Shown: one piece after another, positions 2 to 38,490 of the stretch
How the letters are laid out: each line of letters opens with the position of its first letter
How positions within the stretch are numbered: the first letter of the stretch is position 1
From: Escherichia coli
GTDB lineage: Bacteria; Pseudomonadota; Gammaproteobacteria; Enterobacterales; Enterobacteriaceae
Direction: 5' to 3' (one strand)
Assembly: GCF_036507355.1 (NCBI RefSeq)
Contig: NZ_AP027877.1
DNA: 64,000 nt
The notes under the pieces: model-generated
Seen by the model: only the letters and a program-made list of their open reading frames with translations
Databases searched by the model: none
Told to the model about the DNA's origin: nothing
Program-made: the position numbers and the translations under genes

Positions 2-61
2 GCGGATCTCGGCGTTAGCGTACGTCCGCGCTGGCCGCTGGCGGAGTTACCGGCTGCGTAA
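2..61 (+). CDS. tsaD: 3' end of tRNA threonylcarbamoyladenosine synthase TsaD (partial, runs off window start)
   Basis: In-frame tail ...ADLGVSVRPRWPLAELPAA ending at TAA 59-61; convergent with ttdT as expected from E. coli gene order; too short for the ORF track; identity recalled, not searched. Confidence 0.5.
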   Translation, partial: ADLGVSVRPRWPLAELPAA

Positions 62-18339: not shown

Positions 18340-18540
18340 ATGGATCATAGTCTTAATTCTTTAAATAATTTCGATTTCCTGGCGCGTAGTTTTGCCAGAA
18401 TGCACGCAGAAGGTCGCCCGGTCGATATTCTGGCCGTTACTGGTAACATGGATGAAGAACATAGAACCTGGTTTTGCGCACGTTATGCCTGGTATTGCCA
18501 ACAGATGATGCAAACCAGAGAACTTGAATTAGAACACTGA
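18340..18540 (+). CDS. glgS: GlgS (surface composition regulator, formerly glycogen synthesis protein)
   Basis: ORF 18334..18540; start at ATG 18340 gives the 66-aa [27 protein letters not shown]... protein. Confidence 0.9.
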
Positions 18541-18574
18541 TATGACGGGCCGTCTGGCCCGTTTTTGTGTTGCT
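18541..18574. terminator. Terminator hairpin between convergent glgS and ubiK
   Basis: cgggccgtctggcccg stem-loop followed by TTTTTG. Confidence 0.6.
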
Positions 18575-18874
18575 TTATTCTGCTTTATCAATAGGCGGGA
18601 TAGCCGGAGGAGATTGAAGATCTGCTATCGAATTATTGCGCGCTTCCAGTTCACTGATGCGCTGCTCCAGTAACGCCAGTTTTTCACGAGTCCGTAACAG
18701 GACTTGCGTCTGTACGTCGAATTCTTCGCGGCTCACCAGATCGAGACGCGTCAGCTGCGCTTGTAGGGTTTGGCGGATTTTTTTCTCCACATCTTCCCCG
18801 AACTCCCTGATTCCTTTAGGCATTGATTCGTGAACCTGGCGAGCGATTTGCTCAATTTTTTTCGGGTCAATCAT
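18575..18874 (-). CDS. ubiK: Ubiquinone biosynthesis accessory factor UbiK (YqiC)
   Basis: ORF 18575..18934; start at ATG 18874 ([21 protein letters not shown]...), coiled-coil BMFP family. Confidence 0.85.
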
Positions 18875-18989
18875 TGTAGTTTCCCTGTACTGATAGGTGT
18901 TGAGTGCCATTGTAGTGCGATAAGGGTAAGTCATAAACCAGAATTATGTGAAGCTATGCGTTGCTGCCGCTAATCATTAGCGTTATAGT

Positions 18990-19247
18990 GAATCCGCTTA
19001 TTCTCAGGGCGGGGCGAAATTCCCCACCGGCGGTAAATCAACTCAGTTGAAAGCCCGCGAGCGCTTTGGGTGCGAACTCAAAGGACAGCAGATCCGGTGT
19101 AATTCCGGGGCCGACGGTTAGAGTCCGGATGGGAGAGAGTAACGATTCTGTCGGGCATGGACCCGCTCACGTTATTTTGGCTATATGCCGCCACTCCTAA
19201 GACTGCCCTGATTCTGGTAACCATAATTTTAGTGAGGTTTTTTTACC
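18990..19247 (+). promoter_or_regulatory. ribB 5' leader with FMN riboswitch (RFN element / sroG)
   Basis: Conserved RFN segments aggGCGGGGCGAAATTCCCCACCGGCGGTAAA ... GCCCGCGAGCGC ... CAGCAGATCCGGTGTAATTCCGGGGCCGACGGT ... AGTCCGGATGGGAGAGAG directly upstream of ribB; ends approximate. Confidence 0.8.
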
Positions 19248-19901
19248 ATGAATCAGACGCTACTTTCCTCTTTTGGTACGCCTTTCGAACGTGTTGAAAA
19301 TGCACTGGCTGCGCTGCGTGAAGGACGCGGTGTAATGGTGCTTGATGATGAAGACCGTGAAAACGAAGGTGATATGATCTTCCCGGCAGAAACCATGACT
19401 GTTGAGCAGATGGCGCTGACCATTCGCCACGGTAGCGGTATTGTTTGCCTGTGCATTACTGAAGATCGCCGTAAACAACTCGATCTGCCAATGATGGTAG
19501 AAAATAACACCAGCGCCTATGGCACCGGTTTTACCGTGACCATTGAAGCGGCTGAAGGTGTGACTACCGGTGTTTCTGCCGCTGACCGTATTACGACCGT
19601 TCGCGCAGCGATTGCCGATGGCGCAAAACCTTCTGATCTGAATCGCCCGGGCCACGTTTTCCCACTCCGCGCTCAGGCTGGTGGTGTACTGACGCGTGGC
19701 GGTCATACTGAAGCAACTATTGATCTAATGACGCTGGCAGGCTTCAAACCGGCTGGTGTGCTGTGTGAGCTGACTAATGACGATGGCACGATGGCGCGTG
19801 CACCAGAGTGTATTGAGTTTGCCAATAAACACAATATGGCGCTCGTGACTATTGAAGACCTGGTGGCATACCGTCAGGCACATGAGCGTAAAGCCAGCTG
19901 A
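19248..19901 (+). CDS. ribB: 3,4-dihydroxy-2-butanone 4-phosphate synthase
   Basis: 217 aa, [10 protein letters not shown] signature motif. Confidence 0.93.
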
Positions 19902-19933
19902 AAACCGCTGCTTAATTTACTGCCTTAATCAAG

Positions 19934-19970
19934 AAACCGAAGTTGTAGCAGGCTTCGGTTTTTATTTTTC
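19934..19970 (+). terminator. ribB intrinsic terminator
   Basis: aaaccgaag/cttcggttt hairpin followed by T-run. Confidence 0.7.
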
Positions 19971-20162
19971 CCTGCTATGCAAGATGTTAATTCCGCTTCT
20001 CTTTCTATGAGAAAATTTCATTAATATCAGGCATTCTTTTTCATTATGATCAAAATCATATAATTGTTCCGTTATTATGCGACCATATGAATATATCCGA
20101 AAAAGGATATGTGAAATTTATGCGCTAAATGTTTAGTATTGTTAAATATTAAGGGTAAAAGG

Positions 20163-20333
20163 ATGTTTATCGCCTGGTACTGGATTGTATTGATTGCTCT
20201 TGTTGTGGTGGGTTATTTCCTGCATTTGAAACGTTATTGTCGGGCGTTTCGCCAGGACAGAGACGCACTGCTTGAAGCGCGGAACAAATACTTAAACAGT
20301 ACGAGAGAAGAGACAGCCGAAAAGGTAGAATAA
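20163..20333 (+). CDS. Small single-TM membrane protein (possibly YqiD)
   Basis: ORF 20139..20333; start at ATG 20163 gives MFIAWYWIVLIALVVVGYFL + charged tail; identity not confirmed. Confidence 0.4.
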   Translation: MFIAWYWIVLIALVVVGYFLHLKRYCRAFRQDRDALLEARNKYLNSTREETAEKVE

Positions 20334-20390
20334 GGCTTTAGTGAAGCTAGCAGAAGTTGTCCATGCGCTGGACAACTTCTGATGTTGCTT

Positions 20391-21164
20391 TTAACCAATT
20401 CCCGCCGTTTGTAGCAGCACTAAACTGAATCCCATCACTGACATTCCACATAGTACGCCATAGCTGGGGTTATTATTAGGGTCAATCTCTTTGGCGAGCG
20501 GCATTAATTCATCAACCGAGAGCGCCACCATAATTCCTGCAACCGCCGCCATGATTGCCGCCATGACCACGGGGGAAATCATGCTACCGAGGATTAACCA
20601 CGCCAGCACACCACCAAGAATTTCTGCTAGTCCAGAAATCCCCGCCCACAGAATCGCCGTGCGTTTAGACCCCGTTGCTGCGTAAACCGGGCCTGCCACT
20701 GCCAGACCTTCAGGAATATTGTGCAACGCTACGGCCAGAGCGATGCCAAATCCCAGCTCCAGGTTGCTGCTCGCCGTGACAAAGGTGGCAATCCCTTCCG
20801 GGAAGTTATGCAGACTGATGCCGAGAGTGAGCAGAATGGCTGTGCGCTTGATCGATTTTGGCAACGGCTGCACCGATTTTTGCATTAAATCCTGCGGATG
20901 CGCATGTGGCAACATGCGGTCCAGGCCAAAATAGCCAAGCAGACCGAAGATAAACATTCCATAACCCAACACAGGCGACATTCCTTCAGCTGCTAGTGCG
21001 GCAGGAAGCATTTCCATTAATGAGATGAGCAACATGATCCCCGCCGCAAATCCTAGCGAAAACGCCAGTAAGCGGTTCGAGGGTTTTTGCCCGAGAACGC
21101 CGAGAAACGCGCCAATAAACGTGGCTGCCCCCGCCAGTATGGTCAGAATGAGAGGTACTGACAT
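20391..21164 (-). CDS. zupT: Zinc transporter ZupT (ZIP family)
   Basis: ORF 20391..21206; start at ATG 21164 ([16 protein letters not shown]..., 257 aa) with AAGGAG RBS. Confidence 0.9.
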
Positions 21165-21279
21165 CGACAACTCCTTATAAATCTTCACCTTCAGGCAGAT
21201 CGTCAAAATAACTGATGATCATCATCATTGTTATCCGGGTTCTTACTCCGCCGAACAAGCGTATTGTGAGGATATCAAA

Positions 21280-22095
21280 ATGACACCTTTAGTTAAGGAT
21301 ATCATCATGTCTTCAACACGTATGCCAGCATTGTTTTTAGGTCACGGTAGTCCGATGAACGTGCTGGAAGATAATTTGTATACCCGCAGCTGGCAGAAGT
21401 TGGGGATGACATTGCCACGCCCGCAAGCGATTGTGGTGGTTTCGGCTCACTGGTTTACCCGTGGAACAGGAGTGACCGCGATGGAGACGCCGCCCACGAT
21501 TCATGACTTTGGTGGCTTCCCGCAGGCGCTATACGATACACATTATCCTGCTCCGGGTTCGCCTGCGCTAGCACAGCGTCTGGTTGAGCTGTTAGCGCCG
21601 ATCCCGGTGACGCTGGATAAAGAAGCCTGGGGCTTTGACCACGGTTCCTGGGGCGTGCTGATTAAGATGTATCCTGACGCGGATATCCCGATGGTGCAGT
21701 TGAGTATCGACAGTAGCAAACCTGCCGCCTGGCATTTCGAAATGGGGCGCAAACTCGCGGCGCTGCGAGATGAAGGAATAATGTTGGTCGCCAGCGGTAA
21801 CGTGGTGCATAACCTGCGCACAGTGAAGTGGCACGGTGATAGTTCACCGTATCCGTGGGCGACGTCGTTTAATGAGTATGTGAAAGCGAATCTGACGTGG
21901 CAAGGGCCGGTAGAGCAGCATCCTCTGGTGAATTATCTCGACCATGAAGGTGGCGCGTTATCGAACCCAACGCCAGAGCACTATCTGCCGTTGTTGTATG
22001 TGTTAGGTGCGTGGGATGGGCAGGAGCCAATTACCATTCCGGTCGATGGTATAGAAATGGGCAGTTTAAGTATGCTGTCGGTGCAGATAGGTTAA
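21280..22095 (+). CDS. ygiD: Extradiol ring-cleavage dioxygenase family protein (DOPA 4,5-dioxygenase-like)
   Basis: 271-aa ORF; alternative start ATG 21307 (MSSTRMPALFLGHGSPMN) would give 262 aa. Confidence 0.85.
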   Translation: MTPLVKDIIMSSTRMPALFLGHGSPMNVLEDNLYTRSWQKLGMTLPRPQAIVVVSAHWFTRGTGVTAMETPPTIHDFGGFPQALYDTHYPAPGSPALAQRLVELLAPIPVTLDKEAWGFDHGSWGVLIKMYPDADIPMVQLSIDSSKPAAWHFEMGRKLAALRDEGIMLVASGNVVHNLRTVKWHGDSSPYPWATSFNEYVKANLTWQGPVEQHPLVNYLDHEGGALSNPTPEHYLPLLYVLGAWDGQEPITIPVDGIEMGSLSMLSVQIG

Positions 22096-30257: not shown

Positions 30258-30572
30258 TTAAATCCCCGGTTGCAGGATGCGGATATTCATCTCCAGCACG
30301 TCACCTTTTACGGCTTCGCTATACGCCTTCATGTGCGGGGTTTGCAGATGCGCTTCAAGGTGCGCGATGCTTTCCCACTGCTCAATCATCACGATAGAAT
30401 CCGGTGCCATAGACTGGAAACTCACGCCAGCAGCGCAATCCACCATTGGCGCATAGCCGTGGCAACCTTCTTCTTTCAGTACGGTTGGAACGATTTTAGC
30501 AAACTGATCCAATACCGCTTGACGGTGATGTTGACCAGGACGAGTACGGATTTCTGCGATTACGGTAAGCAT
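30258..30572 (-). CDS. ygiN: Quinol monooxygenase (ABM family)
   Basis: 104 aa, MLTVIAEIRTRPGQHHRQAVL... Confidence 0.88.
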   Translation of the reverse strand: MLTVIAEIRTRPGQHHRQAVLDQFAKIVPTVLKEEGCHGYAPMVDCAAGVSFQSMAPDSIVMIEQWESIAHLEAHLQTPHMKAYSEAVKGDVLEMNIRILQPGI

Positions 30573-30602
30573 GGTTAACTCCTTCTAAAGCCTGAGCTCT
30601 AG

Positions 30603-31184
30603 TTAACCAAAAATTTCCACAAGATGCTTGCGATATTCTTCAGTATAGCGGGGAACATCAGGCATTTTTATCACGTCATTAGCGATAAATGTCGGCAGCG
30701 GTTCCATACCGAGGAATTGGTTTGCTTTATGGAACGGCAGATACACACCGTCGACGCCAACGCCGTGGAAGAATTGATCTTTTTCGGTGAAGGCTTCCAT
30801 TGGTGCGTTCCAGGTCAGAGAAAGCATATATTTTTTGCCCTGTACCAGGCCGCCGGAACCGTATTTTTTTGACGGATCTTTGCGGGTACGGCCATCGCTG
30901 GCATACAGCGTCCCATGACCTTCGGTGAATACATCATCAATATATTTTTTCACTGTCCACGGCGCGCCCATCCACCAGCCTGGCATCTGCCAGATCACCA
31001 CATCAGCCCAGAGAAAGTTTTGTACTTCCGCTTTGACATCGTAGTCGCTGTCGGCGCGAACGATGCGAACATCATGCCCGAGGTCGCGCAGTGTGCCATC
31101 CGCGACTTCGGTCAGGGTGTCGTTCAGTTGACCATTGGAGTGGGCGAATTTTTTCGCGCCGTTGATAATCAGGATGTTGCTCAT
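30603..31184 (-). CDS. mdaB: NADPH:quinone oxidoreductase MdaB
   Basis: 193 aa flavodoxin-like fold, MSNILIINGAKKFAHSNGQLN. Confidence 0.9.
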   Translation of the reverse strand: MSNILIINGAKKFAHSNGQLNDTLTEVADGTLRDLGHDVRIVRADSDYDVKAEVQNFLWADVVIWQMPGWWMGAPWTVKKYIDDVFTEGHGTLYASDGRTRKDPSKKYGSGGLVQGKKYMLSLTWNAPMEAFTEKDQFFHGVGVDGVYLPFHKANQFLGMEPLPTFIANDVIKMPDVPRYTEEYRKHLVEIFG

Positions 31185-31293
31185 TTTTTAACCTCAAGGT
31201 GAGACGTTTGCCGACTATAGTACGTCACAGAGCGGTACGGTGAAATTAGCAAAATGTGCAAAGTCTTTTGCGAATTTAGCAAAAGTCTTACCC

Positions 31294-32643
31294 TTACCAG
31301 CTTACTTTCGCCTCAAATCCACCTTGTTCCGCATTCCCAAACTCAACATTCATGCCATGCAGCTTGGCGATTCGCTGGACAATCGATAGCCCAAGTCCAC
31401 TGCCGGTAGCGGTTTGTCCGGGTGGGCGATAGAAGCGTTCGCCAATTCGCGCTAGTGCCTCTGGCGTCACACCGGGGCCGTTATCCCTCACGATGAAATT
31501 ATCGGCATTCAGCGTGACGTCTACCACGCTGCCCTGTGGACTGTAGCGCACGGCGTTATCCAGCAAATTTCGCACCAACAAACTTAGCAATAGCGGTTGC
31601 CCGGTGCGTTTGATGCTGTGGGCATTTAGTGTCAGTCGCACGTCAATTTTCGCCTGCTGCGCCGTGTGGTAAATATCCATCACCGACGATTGCAGGAGAT
31701 CTTCAAGCGGGATCTCCGCGACGTCCTGAAGGTTATCCAGTGAGTCCAGCCGCGATAGCGTGAGCAGTTGATCAACCAGACGAGTAGCGCGATCGATCCC
31801 GGAATGTAATTGGAGCAGTGCTTTTTTCCGCGCCTGCGGATCATCGTCAGAGAGCTGCGCAACTTCGGTTTGCACTTTCAGCGCCGTTAACGGGCTACGA
31901 AGTTCGTGAGCTGCGTCAGAGGTAAAGCGTCGTTCACGAACCATCATCGCATGTGTGCGGGCGAACAGTTGATTTAGCGACTCAACCAGTGGTCGCACTT
32001 CGCTGGGTACGCCAGTCGCGTTTAGTGGTTTTTCCGAGTCAGGGTCACGCATACGTAGTGCCAGCGCCAGTTTGTTCAGCGGCGCGAGTTCACGACCCAG
32101 TAGTACCATCATGATGATTAACATAATCGGCAGTGCGACCAACCACGGGATCAATTGCCCGGCAACAATCGCCAGCGCCATGTCTTCACGGTATTCCCAT
32201 TCCTGACCAACAACGATGCGATATTTGCCATCAGGTGAGGTCATCCAGACAAAACGCCATTGATCTTTATCGCCCACCAGTTGCCCGTCAGCAAAACCTT
32301 CCCGTTGATAGCTATAGGGAATATCTTCTCCGTTATCGCCATCGTTAAGGACCATTCTGCCGTCGTGGGTAAAGATGGCAAAGGTCAGCGCATCGTCATC
32401 AACATGACCGTGTTTTAATTTATTTGGCGTCTGTGCCATGCGATCCGCCGCGTTGATTTCGTTGAGATCGAGCGTACTTAACCGCTTGGCAAACAGCATC
32501 AGTTGGGTGTCGAACAATTCATCGACGTTATCCGTTGTTTGTTTCCAGGCGACAAAGCTGGAAAGCAGCCAGGTCACCGAGGCCAGAATTAAAAAGATTA
32601 GCGTCAGCCTGACGCGCAGACTAAGACGTTGGGTAAATTTCAT
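31294..32643 (-). CDS. qseC: Two-component sensor histidine kinase QseC
   Basis: 449 aa; two TM helices, H-box AHELRSPL, HATPase domain. Confidence 0.92.
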
Positions 32644-33299
32644 TTCTCACCTAATGTGTAGCCAATACCATGCACGGTACGAATAAAATCACTACCGAGT
32701 TTGCGTCGCAGATGATGCACATGCACTTCAACGGCATTACTGGTGACCTCTTCGTCCCAGGTATACAGTTTCTCTTCAATCAGTTTGCGCGGCAGTACCC
32801 GACCAGCGTTACGCATCAGTAATTCCAGCAGGGCAAATTCTTTTGGTTTCAGTGTTAAGGGTTCGCCAGCCAGCGTGGCGATACGTTTGCCGGGGTCGAG
32901 CATGACGTTACCGTGGCGCAGCTCGTTGCTGGCCTGGCCGTTGGTTCGGCGCATCAGAGCTTCCAGCCTGGCGGCGACTTCTATCAACGCAAAAGGTTTA
33001 CACAGATAATCGTCAGCTCCCAGACGCAGCCCTTCTACACGTTCCTCCAGCGCATCGCGCGCGGTCAGGATCAGTACCGGCTCACGCTGACCTTTTTCTC
33101 GCCATTCGCGCAAAATATCGCGACCATCCATGCCTGGTAAGGTTAAATCCAGGATCACCGCATCATAAGGTGCGCTATAAAGCGCCTCTTTTCCCTGACG
33201 ACCTTGTGTAAACCAGTCGACGCTAAAACCCATTTTACTAAGGCCCGTTTTGATGCCGTCGCCAATCAGCATGTCATCTTCTATCAGTAAAATTCGCAT
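32640..33299 (-). CDS. qseB: Two-component response regulator QseB (OmpR family)
   Basis: 219 aa; receiver domain (MRILLIEDD) plus winged helix; 4-nt overlap with qseC. Confidence 0.92.
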
Positions 33300-33450
33300 T
33301 TTTTCATCCCTGCGATAACCGTATTTGCTGCCAGTAAACCGTGTTGTAACGCGCTCTGTACAGCACTAAATTTTATTTTTTTCCCTTAAGAAGTTGTTAA
33401 GGACTATCTTGTTAAATGCTCGGAAACAGACATTAAAGGGAGTAATAAAC

Positions 33451-33843
33451 ATGAAAAAATTCGCAGCAGTAATCGCAGTAATGGCCCTGTGCAGCGCACC
33501 GGTGATGGCAGCAGAGCAGGGCGGTTTTTCTGGCCCATCGGCAACGCAAAGTCAGGCCGGAGGATTCCAGGGGCCGAACGGCAGCGTAACGACTGTAGAA
33601 AGCGCAAAATCCCTGCGTGACGACACCTGGGTAACCCTGCGCGGCAATATCGTTGAACGCATCTCTGACGATCTCTACGTGTTCAAAGATGCCAGCGGTA
33701 CTATCAATGTTGATATCGACCACAAACGCTGGAACGGCGTGACGGTGACGCCGAAAGATACGGTTGAGATTCAGGGTGAAGTCGATAAAGACTGGAATTC
33801 TGTTGAAATTGACGTCAAACAGATCCGCAAAGTAAATCCGTAA
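33451..33843 (+). CDS. ygiW: BOF/YgiW family periplasmic OB-fold stress protein
   Basis: ORF 33394..33843; start at ATG 33451 (MKKFAAVIAVMALCSAPVMA signal peptide). Confidence 0.88.
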   Translation: MKKFAAVIAVMALCSAPVMAAEQGGFSGPSATQSQAGGFQGPNGSVTTVESAKSLRDDTWVTLRGNIVERISDDLYVFKDASGTINVDIDHKRWNGVTVTPKDTVEIQGEVDKDWNSVEIDVKQIRKVNP

Positions 33844-33895
33844 TTGTTACCGCTCCCGGGATGCGTTCCCGGGAATAATTTCGCAGGGAGGCAAA

Positions 33896-34378
33896 ATGAC
33901 AAACCTGACACTGGATGTAAACATTATCGATTTCCCATCAATCCCTGTGGCGATGTTGCCGCACCGCTGTAGCCCTGAGTTGCTCAACTACAGTGTGGCG
34001 AAATTTATCATGTGGCGTAAAGAGACGGGGCTTTCTCCTGTTAACCAAAGCCAGACTTTTGGCGTCGCCTGGGACGACCCTGCCACCACCGCACCGGAAG
34101 CGTTTCGCTTTGATATCTGCGGCAGCGTTAGCGAACCGATTCCCGATAATCGTTATGGTGTGAGCAATGGTGAACTTACCGGTGGACGTTATGCCGTGGC
34201 CCGCCACGTTGGCGAGCTGGACGATATTTCACACACGATATGGGGCATTATTCGCCACTGGCTGCCTGCAAGCGGCGAGAAAATGCGTAAAGCACCGATT
34301 CTGTTTCACTACACCAATCTTGCCGAAGGGGTGACGGAGCAGCGACTGGAAACGAATGTTTATGTGCCGTTAGCGTGA
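33896..34378 (+). CDS. ygiV: GyrI-like domain transcriptional regulator
   Basis: 160 aa, AraC-effector/GyrI-like fold. Confidence 0.85.
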   Translation: MTNLTLDVNIIDFPSIPVAMLPHRCSPELLNYSVAKFIMWRKETGLSPVNQSQTFGVAWDDPATTAPEAFRFDICGSVSEPIPDNRYGVSNGELTGGRYAVARHVGELDDISHTIWGIIRHWLPASGEKMRKAPILFHYTNLAEGVTEQRLETNVYVPLA

Positions 34379-34486
34379 TGGGGAATCTTTACCGGAGTGT
34401 GAGCCAAATCACTCGCGATAAGTTTGAGCGAACAATGCCACAGGCGTATTGTTGTTGGGCTTATAATTTCTCCGGTAAGGAATACC

Positions 34487-36094
34487 ATGTATACGCGAAA
34501 TTTATTATGGCTGGTCAGCCTGGTAAGTGCGGCTCCTCTCTACGCTGCTGACGTTCCCGCCAACACACAGCTCGCCCCGCAACAAGTCTTTCGTTACAAC
34601 AATCATAGCGACCCAGGTACGCTCGACCCGCAAAAGGTGGAGGAGAATACTGCTGCGCAGATTGTGCTGGATCTGTTTGAAGGTCTGGTATGGATGGACG
34701 GTGAAGGCCAGGTGCAGCCCGCTCAGGCTGAACGCTGGGAGATACTGGACGGCGGCAAGCGCTATATTTTCCATCTGCGTAGCGGTTTGCAGTGGTCCGA
34801 CGGTCAGCCTCTGACGGCAGAGGATTTTGTCCTCGGCTGGCAGCGCGCGGTTGACCCGAAAACGGCAAGCCCTTTTGCTGGCTATCTGGCACAGGCGCAC
34901 ATTAACAATGCCGCGGCTATTGTTGCGGGTAAAGCAGATGTTACATCGCAGGGTGTCAAAGCGACGGATGATCGTACTCTTGAAGTTACGCTTGAGCAGC
35001 CGGTTCCTTGGTTCACGACGATGCTCGCCTGGCCGACGCTGTTCCCGGTTCCTCATCATGTCATCGCTAAACATGGCGATAGCTGGAGTAAGCCAGAGAA
35101 CATGGTTTACAACGGTGCCTTTGTGCTTGATCAGTGGGTAGTTAACGAAAAGATTACTGCACGCAAAAATCCAAAGTACCGCGATGCGCAACATACAGTA
35201 TTGCAACAGGTTGAGTATCTGGCGCTGGATAATTCGGTCACCGGCTATAACCGCTATCGCGCGGGAGAGGTCGATCTCACCTGGGTTCCGGCGCAGCAAA
35301 TTCCCGCCATTGAAAAATCACTGCCTGGCGAGCTACGAATTATTCCGCGTCTGAACAGCGAATATTACAACTTCAACCTTGAGAAACCGCCATTTAACGA
35401 TGTGCGAGTGCGTCGGGCGCTATATCTTACGGTTGATCGACAGCTTATTGCGCAAAAGGTACTGGGGTTGAGAACGCCCGCAACCACGCTGACGCCGCCA
35501 GAGGTAAAAGGCTTTAGCGCGACGAGGTTCGATGAACTGCAAAAGCCAATGAGTGAGCGCGTCGCGATGGCAAAAGCCTTGCTGAAACAGGCGGGATACG
35601 ACGCCTCTCATCCGCTACGCTTTGAGCTGTTCTACAACAAGTACGATCTGCATGAAAAGACCGCGATAGCGTTGTCTTCCGAATGGAAAAAATGGCTGGG
35701 TGCACAGGTGACGCTGCGCACAATGGAGTGGAAAACCTATCTTGATGCCCGACGAGCCGGTGATTTCATGCTGTCTCGGCAGTCGTGGGATGCGACGTAC
35801 AATGATGCTTCCAGCTTCCTGAACACGCTCAAAAGCGATAGTGAAGAAAACGTCGGTCACTGGAAAAATGCGCAGTATGACGCCTTACTAAACCAGGCCA
35901 CGCAGATCACTGATGCGACAAAGCGTAATGCGTTGTATCAGCAGGCAGAAGTGATCATCAACCAGCAGGCACCGCTGATTCCTATCTACTATCAGCCGTT
36001 AATCAAACTGCTTAAACCCTACGTTGGCGGTTTTCCGCTGCATAATCCCCAGGATTATGTCTACAGCAAAGAGTTGTATATCAAGGCACATTGA
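34487..36094 (+). CDS. ygiS: Periplasmic solute-binding protein (ABC substrate-binding family 5)
   Basis: ORF 34424..36094; start at ATG 34487 with signal peptide MYTRNLLWLVSLVSAAPLYA. Confidence 0.88.
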   Translation: MYTRNLLWLVSLVSAAPLYAADVPANTQLAPQQVFRYNNHSDPGTLDPQKVEENTAAQIVLDLFEGLVWMDGEGQVQPAQAERWEILDGGKRYIFHLRSGLQWSDGQPLTAEDFVLGWQRAVDPKTASPFAGYLAQAHINNAAAIVAGKADVTSQGVKATDDRTLEVTLEQPVPWFTTMLAWPTLFPVPHHVIAKHGDSWSKPENMVYNGAFVLDQWVVNEKITARKNPKYRDAQHTVLQQVEYLALDNSVTGYNRYRAGEVDLTWVPAQQIPAIEKSLPGELRIIPRLNSEYYNFNLEKPPFNDVRVRRALYLTVDRQLIAQKVLGLRTPATTLTPPEVKGFSATRFDELQKPMSERVAMAKALLKQAGYDASHPLRFELFYNKYDLHEKTAIALSSEWKKWLGAQVTLRTMEWKTYLDARRAGDFMLSRQSWDATYNDASSFLNTLKSDSEENVGHWKNAQYDALLNQATQITDATKRNALYQQAEVIINQQAPLIPIYYQPLIKLLKPYVGGFPLHNPQDYVYSKELYIKAH

Positions 36095-36231
36095 TGCCTT
36101 TATCGCCGTCGGAGCACGTCCGGCGGCGCTATTCACGCTGATCTCCTGTGACTCGACGCGGCAGATAATGTAGTATCTCCGGCAATATTGCCCCTTTGAA
36201 GGCTGGCGAATAAGTTGAGGAATCAGAATTA

Positions 36232-38490
36232 ATGAGCGATATGGCAGAGCGCCTTGCGCTACATGAATTTACGGAAAACGCCTACTTAAACTACTCCATG
36301 TACGTGATCATGGACCGTGCGTTGCCGTTTATTGGTGATGGTCTGAAACCTGTTCAGCGCCGCATTGTGTATGCGATGTCTGAACTGGGCCTGAATGCCA
36401 GCGCCAAATTTAAAAAATCGGCCCGTACCGTCGGTGACGTACTGGGTAAATACCATCCGCACGGCGATAGCGCCTGTTATGAAGCGATGGTCCTGATGGC
36501 GCAGCCGTTCTCTTACCGTTATCCGCTGGTTGATGGTCAGGGGAACTGGGGCGCGCCGGACGATCCGAAATCGTTCGCGGCAATGCGTTACACCGAATCC
36601 CGGTTGTCGAAATATTCCGAGCTGCTATTGAGCGAGCTGGGGCAGGGGACGGCTGACTGGGTGCCAAACTTTGACGGCACTTTGCAGGAGCCGAAAATGC
36701 TACCTGCCCGTCTGCCAAACATTTTGCTTAACGGCACCACCGGTATTGCCGTCGGCATGGCGACCGATATTCCACCGCATAACCTGCGTGAAGTGGCTCA
36801 GGCGGCAATCGCATTAATCGACCAGCCGAAAACCACGCTCGATCAGCTGCTGGATATCGTGCAGGGGCCGGATTATCCGACTGAAGCGGAAATTATCACT
36901 TCGCGCGCCGAGATCCGTAAAATCTACGAGAACGGACGTGGTTCAGTGCGTATGCGCGCGGTGTGGAAGAAAGAAGATGGCGCGGTGGTTATCAGCGCAT
37001 TGCCGCATCAGGTTTCAGGTGCGCGCGTACTGGAGCAAATTGCTGCGCAAATGCGCAACAAAAAGCTGCCGATGGTTGACGATCTGCGCGATGAATCTGA
37101 CCACGAGAACCCGACCCGTCTGGTGATTGTGCCGCGTTCCAACCGCGTGGATATGGATCAGGTGATGAACCACCTCTTCGCTACCACCGATCTGGAAAAG
37201 AGCTATCGCATTAACCTCAATATGATCGGTCTGGATGGTCGTCCGGCGGTGAAAAACCTGCTGGAAATCCTCTCCGAATGGCTGGTGTTCCGCCGCGATA
37301 CCGTGCGCCGCCGACTGAACTATCGTCTGGAGAAAGTCCTCAAGCGCCTGCATATCCTCGAAGGTTTGCTGGTGGCGTTTCTCAATATCGACGAAGTGAT
37401 TGAGATCATTCGTAATGAAGATGAACCGAAACCGGCGCTGATGTCGCGGTTTGGCCTTACGGAAACCCAGGCGGAAGCGATCCTCGAACTGAAACTCCGT
37501 CATCTTGCCAAACTGGAAGAGATGAAGATTCGCGGTGAGCAGAGTGAGCTGGAAAAAGAGCGCGACCAGTTGCAGGGCATTTTGGCTTCCGAGCGTAAAA
37601 TGAATAACCTGCTGAAGAAAGAACTGCAGGCAGACGCGCAAGCCTACGGTGACGATCGTCGTTCGCCGTTGCAGGAACGCGAAGAAGCGAAAGCGATGAG
37701 CGAGCACGACATGCTGCCGTCTGAACCTGTCACCATTGTGCTGTCGCAGATGGGCTGGGTACGCAGCGCTAAAGGCCATGATATCGACGCGCCGGGCCTG
37801 AATTATAAAGCGGGTGATAGCTTCAAAGCGGCGGTGAAAGGTAAGAGCAACCAACCGGTAGTGTTTGTTGATTCCACCGGTCGTAGCTATGCCATCGACC
37901 CGATTACGCTGCCGTCGGCGCGTGGTCAGGGCGAGCCGCTCACCGGCAAATTAACGTTGCCGCCTGGGGCGACCGTTGACCATATGCTGATGGAAAGCGA
38001 CGATCAGAAACTGCTGATGGCTTCCGATGCGGGTTACGGTTTCGTCTGCACCTTTAACGATCTGGTGGCGCGTAACCGTGCAGGTAAGGCTTTGATCACC
38101 TTACCGGAAAATGCCCATGTTATGCCGCCGGTGGTGATTGAAGATGCTTCCGATATGCTGCTGGCAATCACTCAGGCAGGCCGTATGTTGATGTTCCCGG
38201 TAAGTGATCTGCCGCAGCTGTCGAAGGGCAAAGGCAACAAGATTATCAACATTCCATCGGCAGAAGCCGCGCGTGGCGAGGATGGTCTGGCGCAACTGTA
38301 CGTTCTGCCGCCGCAAAGCACGCTGACCATTCATGTTGGGAAACGCAAAATTAAACTGCGTCCGGAAGAGCTACAGAAAGTCACTGGCGAACGTGGACGC
38401 CGCGGTACGTTGATGCGCGGTTTGCAGCGTATCGATCGTGTTGAGATCGACTCTCCTCGCCGTGCCAGCAGCGGTGATAGCGAAGAGTAA
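36232..38490 (+). CDS. parC: DNA topoisomerase IV subunit A
   Basis: 752 aa; GyrA-like with catalytic AAMRYTE motif. Confidence 0.95.

Follow-up and report, generated by a model that had tools for sequence, protein, structure and literature searches.

The small gene yqiD between ribB and zupT of Escherichia coli encodes a conserved, predicted single-helix membrane protein

The window analysed here, a 64,000-nucleotide stretch of E. coli DNA, carries a small gene between ribB and zupT, whose features are listed in Table 1. The ribB gene runs to 19901, with a terminator-like hairpin beyond it at 19932–19963, and the spacer between ribB and the small gene (19902–20162) has a G+C content of 31.4%, compared with 52.1% for the window. 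Translation from the ATG at 20163 to the TAA at 20331–20333 on the + strand gives MFIAWYWIVLIALVVVGYFLHLKRYCRAFRQDRDALLEARNKYLNSTREETAEKVE. The sequence-only reading had placed a 56-residue open reading frame (ORF) at exactly these coordinates, in an AT-rich spacer downstream of the ribB terminator, and had named YqiD as its possible identity; the ORF and its setting are as described, and annotation, K-12 and published records all confirm the identity. The window is apparently co-linear with positions 663912–727911 of the E. coli GF3-3 chromosome (the first 50 kb have the same gene coordinates, and 19900–20400 is 100% identical), in which RefSeq annotates a yqiD coding sequence at window 20163–20333 with the same start and the product 'protein YqiD' (WP_000469266.1). 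Its K-12 MG1655 counterpart, b4756 (YP_009518818.1, 3183381–3183551), also lies between ribB and zupT and encodes a protein with no difference from that of the window; the two are one gene in two strains. VanOrsdel et al. 2018, who placed yqiD between zupT and ribB (PMC6001520), printed a sequence that agrees with the window protein at 56 of 56 residues, and an exact-sequence look-up returned 'Protein YqiD, YQID_ECOLI' (UniProt), present on at least 1000 contigs.

Table 1. Features of the yqiD locus (window coordinates; protein features in residues of YqiD).
Feature	Position	Strand	Description
Sigma-70-like TTAATA-18-TATGAT	20021..20050	+	Predicted; sole consensus match upstream of yqiD
Palindrome TATGATCAAAATCATA	20045..20060		Core ATGAT-N4-ATCAT at 20046-20059; candidate operator, ~110 nt 5' of yqiD
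Inverted repeat ATATCC-N6-GGATAT	20093..20110	+	Hairpin or palindrome
Conserved non-coding leader	20108..20162	+	TATGTGAAATTT..TAAATGTTTAGT..TGTTAAAT.TTAAGGGTAAAAGG, directly before the ATG
Shine-Dalgarno AAGGG	20151..20155	+	7 nt 5' of the yqiD ATG, inside conserved TAAGGGTAAAAGG
yqiD coding sequence	20163..20333	+	56 aa and stop; from annotation, identical published sequence and frame conservation
yqiD intrinsic terminator	20351..20392	+	13-bp stem (20351-20381) and U-rich tail
zupT	20391..21164	-	ZIP-family divalent metal importer; convergent neighbour, candidate partner
Second ATGAT-N4-ATCAT copy, ATGATCATCATCAT	21215..21228		In the zupT-ygiD divergent promoter region
YqiD hydrophobic helix	residues ~2-22		Transmembrane, predicted
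YqiD motif KRYCRAFRQDRDAL	residues 23-36		Conserved, near-invariant, predicted cytoplasmic
YqiD tail	residues 43-56		Variable

The protein is made in growing cells: YqiD carrying a chromosomal SPA tag gave an immunoblot band in E. coli grown in rich medium (PMC6001520). The sequence-only reading had suggested ribosome footprints as a check, and the literature supplies the answer, as 13 proteins, YqiD among them, also gave a positive result when screened by tetracycline ribosome profiling (PMC6001520). The ORF at 20163–20333 is the catalogued E. coli gene yqiD, which is already known, real, translated and conserved. Our literature search returned no experiment on YqiD function; the remaining papers that mention 'yqiD' seem, judging by their titles, to deal with the unrelated B. 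subtilis gene yqiD/ispA.

A mechanical ORF list gives a longer version of the gene that starts at a TTG at 20139 and encodes 64 residues. The sequence-only reading had preferred the ATG over this TTG eight codons upstream, and two kinds of evidence uphold that choice. A Shine-Dalgarno sequence precedes the ATG only, and inspection of the sequence found no such element before the TTG. The TAAGGGTAAAAGG ribosome-binding region (TAAGGG) and the ATG are conserved from Escherichia to Salmonella, including Citrobacter, whereas the TTG extension is lost in 15 of 35 other loci, other Escherichia species and Salmonella among them, in which 1-nt insertions or deletions in the A-run before the ATG shift the TTG out of frame or leave an in-frame stop after it. 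Fourteen of those 15 loci have no in-frame start whatsoever upstream of the ATG.

We scanned one genome per GTDB species, which yielded 30 species loci from Escherichia, Citrobacter, Salmonella, Intestinirhabdus, Kosakonia and Phytobacter, and found yqiD open with the same ATG start in all 30. Each locus was compared with the window over codons 2–42 by the Nei-Gojobori method. Synonymous proportions (pS) were 0.6–0.9 between genera, with synonymous sites near saturation; non-synonymous proportions were 0.05–0.12 in most between-genus pairs and at most 0.35 for the most distant ones. The resulting dN/dS was 0.03–0.11 for the closer loci and 0.19 for Phytobacter, and was not computable for three pairs with saturated synonymous sites. 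Variable columns numbered 20, 16 and 37 of 42 at the first, second and third codon positions. The other two + strand frames contained stops in 31–33 of 33 sequences, namely the 30 loci, the window and two E. coli records. Conservation of the reading frame in relatives, which the sequence-only reading had left to be checked, thus holds across genera, and these alignments indicate that strong purifying selection acts on YqiD residues 1–42. The same values exclude a chance or merely regulatory ORF. Together with conservation that begins at the ATG, they leave next to no room for the idea that the true product is the 64-residue form, despite the mechanical call at the TTG and the fact that many Citrobacter loci have an ATG in frame at that −8 position, or that the frame has no product of its own. 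We put the probability that yqiD is genuine, translated and inherited vertically, and encodes a bitopic inner-membrane protein of 56 residues, at roughly 0.85.

The family is compact. A protein search found relatives in Escherichia, Shigella, Citrobacter and Salmonella, and a profile search extended them to Kosakonia, Metakosakonia, Phytobacter and other Enterobacteriaceae; in the searches made, relatives were confined to the Enterobacteriaceae. An exhaustive HMMER profile scan of 1.84 billion representatives gave 23 clusters at E ≤ 0.001, of which two (P0149 and P0150) were WD-repeat false positives. The rest resembled family members or fragments; every one that was checked was enterobacterial, and none of the 23 was an informative distant relative. 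A search of the PDB with the family profile returned no chain at E ≤ 10. Scans of YqiD against Pfam and NCBIfam gave nothing above cut-off: DUF2621 (Pfam; 19.8 bits against a cut-off of 27.7) and NF038143 (NCBIfam; 18 against 50) were matches of the composition type that we did not take as homology, and the sub-threshold Pfam matches were DUF2621 and DUF4381 only. Close homologues are named 'DUF4051 domain-containing protein' by UniRef and NCBI; Pfam DUF4051 itself matched neither the window protein nor 16 homologues, the model possibly being missing from the release searched.

Hydropathy and structure prediction agree with the earlier description of a small single-pass membrane protein. Residues 2–20 have a mean Kyte-Doolittle hydropathy of 2.4, no residues stand ahead of the hydrophobic stretch, and five lysines or arginines lie within the 15 residues that follow it. 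AlphaFold2, run on a 13-sequence alignment, predicted a single helix over residues 3–55 with a mean pLDDT of 74. The predicted topology has the N terminus out and the C-terminal ~34 residues cytoplasmic and helical, the C terminus being assigned to the inside by the positive-inside rule. Among 19 diverse members, the least variable positions were M1, I3, W5, W7, Y18, K23, R24, C26, A28, R30, Q31, D32, R33, D34, A35 and L36, with positions 28, 30, 33 and 35 invariant or nearly so; beyond residue 42, both sequence and length vary. The strongest constraint therefore falls on two elements: an aromatic cap, M-x-I-x-W-x-W, on the predicted periplasmic side, and a contiguous juxtamembrane stretch, (K/R)R-x-C-x-A-(F/Y)-R-Q-(D/E)-R-(D/E)-A-L. 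Conservation within the transmembrane helix has no 100-degree periodicity and marks no single packing face. His21 and Cys26 lie at the membrane interface, to which Citrobacter and Salmonella add Cys20. Cys26 is kept in 16 of the 19 diverse members, and some members, such as P0147, have neither the cysteine nor the histidine residues.

The palindrome TATGATCAAAATCATA marks a sharp onset of cross-genus conservation upstream of yqiD. Its centre lies 108–111 nt from the ATG in 29 of 29 sequences (the window and 28 Escherichia, Citrobacter, Salmonella and Intestinirhabdus loci), and its half-sites are fixed while the spacer varies (CAAA, CGAA or TGAA). Enterobacter sp. kpr-6 has a variant of it, and the Kosakonia and Phytobacter loci lack it. 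Its TGA-N6-TCA core is similar to CRP/FNR-type sites; literature searches on the palindrome string, and on zupT, ribB and FNR, gave no match. The palindrome overlaps the −10-like TATGAT of the sigma-70-like match, whose −35 part is unconserved and whose occurrence is at chance level (one found, against 1.5 expected in shuffled sequences). Further downstream, paired changes partly maintain the ATATCC-N6-GGATAT repeat in some Citrobacter and Intestinirhabdus loci. The part of the leader close to the Shine-Dalgarno sequence recurs in distant family members with a different genomic context. A structured RNA in this 55-nt leader was unsupported, the consensus fold being −1.8 kcal/mol and the single-sequence z score −1.8, and the leader alignment contained no compensatory or covarying pairs. 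The yqiD upstream region drives a GFP reporter, and natural cis variants within it alter expression consistently over three methods (bioRxiv 10.1101/2025.06.10.658842).

Downstream, the terminator hairpin folds at −25.1 kcal/mol (z = −4.2) and its U-rich tail enters the zupT stop codon, so that the terminator is common to the convergent yqiD and zupT genes. With the Shine-Dalgarno sequence and ATG, the reporter-driving upstream region and this terminator, yqiD has its own expression signals. The two genes are convergent in 30 of 30 species loci, and also in a metagenome relative, in Metakosakonia (where their overlap is 18 nt) and in Kosakonia cowanii; their stop codons are 58 nt apart here, and elsewhere a few tens of nucleotides apart or overlapping. 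By comparison, ribB lies within 3 kb upstream of yqiD in only 18 of the 30 loci, which indicates that insertions fall between the ribB terminator and the palindrome. One 2-kb Logan contig (SRR31245077_25353; L035 1499–1876) has ZupT residues 1–72 fused in frame to a YqiD-like segment from residue 13 to the end, followed by the zupT C terminus on the opposite strand. This arrangement is as expected from an inversion with breakpoints inside both convergent genes at an ATGTTCG microhomology, and an assembly or library artefact is possible.

The ATGAT-N4-ATCAT core of the palindrome has exactly two occurrences in the 64-kb window, where 0.04 would be expected, and the second copy lies on the far side of zupT. 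The zupT-side copy is conserved across genera with a variable spacer, and in Intestinirhabdus it has changed symmetrically to TGACGA-TCT-TCGTCA. It is embedded in a (GAT)n(ATC)n run in which several registers are possible. In a scan with the Fur consensus, it scored 14 of 19, among the best matches of the window; the yqiD palindrome scored below 13 of 19, and a common Fur site for the two genes is thus unsupported. Any regulator common to yqiD and zupT is therefore hypothetical. In Kosakonia, Phytobacter and related loci (L026, L030–L032, L036, L039, L041 and L047), a strong Fur-box-like sequence, GATAATGATTCTCATTAAT (15 of 19 to the consensus), lies directly against the ribosome-binding site of zupT; the E. 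coli, Citrobacter and Salmonella loci lack it.

E. coli carries two forms of this locus. A megablast search with 19900–20400 matched 4,432 of 5,426 complete E. coli genomes, in which the feature is labelled 'yqiD: protein YqiD', and a second allele is present in 989 of the 5,426 (~18%). Between them, the two alleles cover 5,425 of the 5,426 genomes, and yqiD is single-copy and core in E. coli; neither the window nor the assT–ygiC gap of a B2 strain contained a second paralogue. The second allele, for example at L033 9220–9390 (E. coli Ecol_745) and L002 4119–4289, encodes a protein 68–70% identical to that of the window with a dS of ~1.4, as distant as Citrobacter, and its RefSeq name is 'hypothetical protein' only (for example, WP_001296421.1). 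Like the window allele, it retains the length, the start, the Shine-Dalgarno sequence, the palindrome at −110, the position convergent with zupT and the core of residues 1–36; by contrast, its tail and terminator sequence differ, and associated with it is a four-gene chaperone-usher fimbrial operon that has been inserted into the ribB–yqiD spacer. Homology between the haplotypes starts at the palindrome, and their divergence extends from there precisely as far as the stop codon of zupT (the equivalent of window 20045–20390). The terminator stem differs in sequence between them and retains its pairing. One strain, Z1323CEC0015, is a mosaic of both haplotypes.

The second allele appears in published expression data under another name. 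The quantitative PCR with reverse transcription (qRT-PCR) primers for EC042_3334 of enteroaggregative E. coli 042 match the second allele at L033 9220–9390 exactly. EC042_3334 RNA was about fourfold higher in an aar mutant, by RNA sequencing and qRT-PCR, and went down again on complementation; the gene was listed merely as a DUF4051 hypothetical protein, and aar belongs to the H-NS-binding ANR family (PMC5570504).

Linkage to zupT is not universal in the family. A divergent branch adjoins assT or dsbL–dsbI instead of zupT (L047 10055–10213; L042 3501–3662; L038 3501–3704); in L047, the interval from ribB to zupT is 63 nt long and contains no small ORF, and the yqiD-like gene lies 3 kb away. 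Thus, yqiD is not obligatorily tied to zupT. The window and K-12 lack assT–dsbL–dsbI and keep yqiD.

Several other features of the window were noted. At 18541–18574, glgS directly adjoins ubiK; relative to K-12 (L034 4632–11239), the window strain lacks the ygiL–yqiGHI fimbrial operon and its IS2 between these genes. Approximately 7 kb between parE and ygiN (30274–37466), genes that are adjacent in K-12, carry a TonB-dependent siderophore receptor, a FecCD-type ABC transporter and a MurR/RpiR regulator, and the receptor gene contains, within its 5′ end, the best Fur-consensus match of the window (15 of 19; 32110–32128). A full-length match of the Rfam family STnc240 to the ribB terminator (19900–19970; 29 bits against 55) was rejected as probably due to chance, since no such match was found downstream of ribB in the Salmonella or Citrobacter loci. 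The start of ygiD is given as 21280 by the mechanical ORF call and in K-12 (ATG, 271 aa), and as 21307 in RefSeq GF3-3 (262 aa).

What YqiD does can be approached from its architecture. Other enterobacterial small membrane proteins bind and modulate larger proteins. The transmembrane helix of YqiD would tether the near-invariant juxtamembrane motif at the inner leaflet, and the tethered motif would bind and modulate a larger membrane or membrane-associated protein. That YqiD is a membrane-anchored modulator of a larger protein is a tentative, class-level reading, to which we give slightly less than an even chance.

If YqiD has such a partner, synteny and the shared promoter motif make ZupT the leading candidate, although a weak one that is probably wrong. 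It is also unlikely, to much the same degree, that YqiD is a post-translational regulator or accessory subunit of ZupT that is co-regulated with it through the common palindrome. Convergent adjacency throughout the Escherichia, Citrobacter, Salmonella, Kosakonia and Phytobacter loci argues for this proposal, as do the presence of ATGAT-N4-ATCAT in both promoter regions at far above the expected frequency and the histidine and cysteine residues at the membrane interface. ZupT is described as otherwise constitutively expressed (PMC4424684), so that post-translational control would have something to act on. However, the linkage is broken in the divergent branch, the cysteine and histidine residues are missing in some members, and the motif on the zupT side may represent an array of Fur type with no relation to yqiD. 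Adjacency could also reflect an ancestral gene order protected by the common terminator. A fuller version, in which the convergent genes form a module co-controlled by the palindrome, YqiD regulates ZupT and the two haplotypes represent lineage-specific tuning of metal uptake, is a little less probable again.

Two other proposals fare worse. The position of the divergent branch, immediately beside assT or dsbL–dsbI, raises the idea that YqiD works with this periplasmic thiol-redox and sulfotransferase cluster, for example through the widely kept Cys26, and the cluster lies a few kilobases from yqiD in many strains. We consider this very unlikely: Cys26 is predicted to be cytoplasmic whereas DsbL and AssT are periplasmic, and the window and K-12 have yqiD without the cluster. 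As a small, hydrophobic protein encoded in an AT-rich spacer, YqiD might alternatively be a membrane-damaging peptide similar to type I toxins and silenced by an antisense RNA, which read-through from zupT could yield. This appears more improbable still. The tagged protein is readily seen in ordinary rich-medium cultures (PMC6001520), no Rfam small RNA or antitoxin family was found in 18500–21500 even at E ≤ 1, pore-forming toxins do not typically have a long, conserved and charged cytoplasmic motif, and the gene is single-copy and core.

For the E. coli gene catalogue, these results add nothing new; a reading of the raw sequence recovered a genuine small-protein gene with its correct start codon. 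They do provide entry points to function, namely a compact family definition, a candidate operator upstream, ZupT as a testable partner and a divergent allele, unnamed by RefSeq, in ~18% of complete E. coli genomes. Were it true that YqiD controls ZupT, this would explain how a constitutive, broad-spectrum metal importer is restrained.

MgtS, AcrZ, MgrB, KdpF, PmrR and SgrT are enterobacterial small inner-membrane regulatory proteins. YqiD resembles them in having fewer than 60 residues, one (predicted) transmembrane helix, and its own Shine-Dalgarno sequence and promoter, in being restricted to enterobacteria and in having its gene beside a transporter gene. It has no sequence similarity to them, and, unlike MgtS-type proteins, its conservation is highest in the cytoplasmic juxtamembrane motif and not in the transmembrane helix alone.
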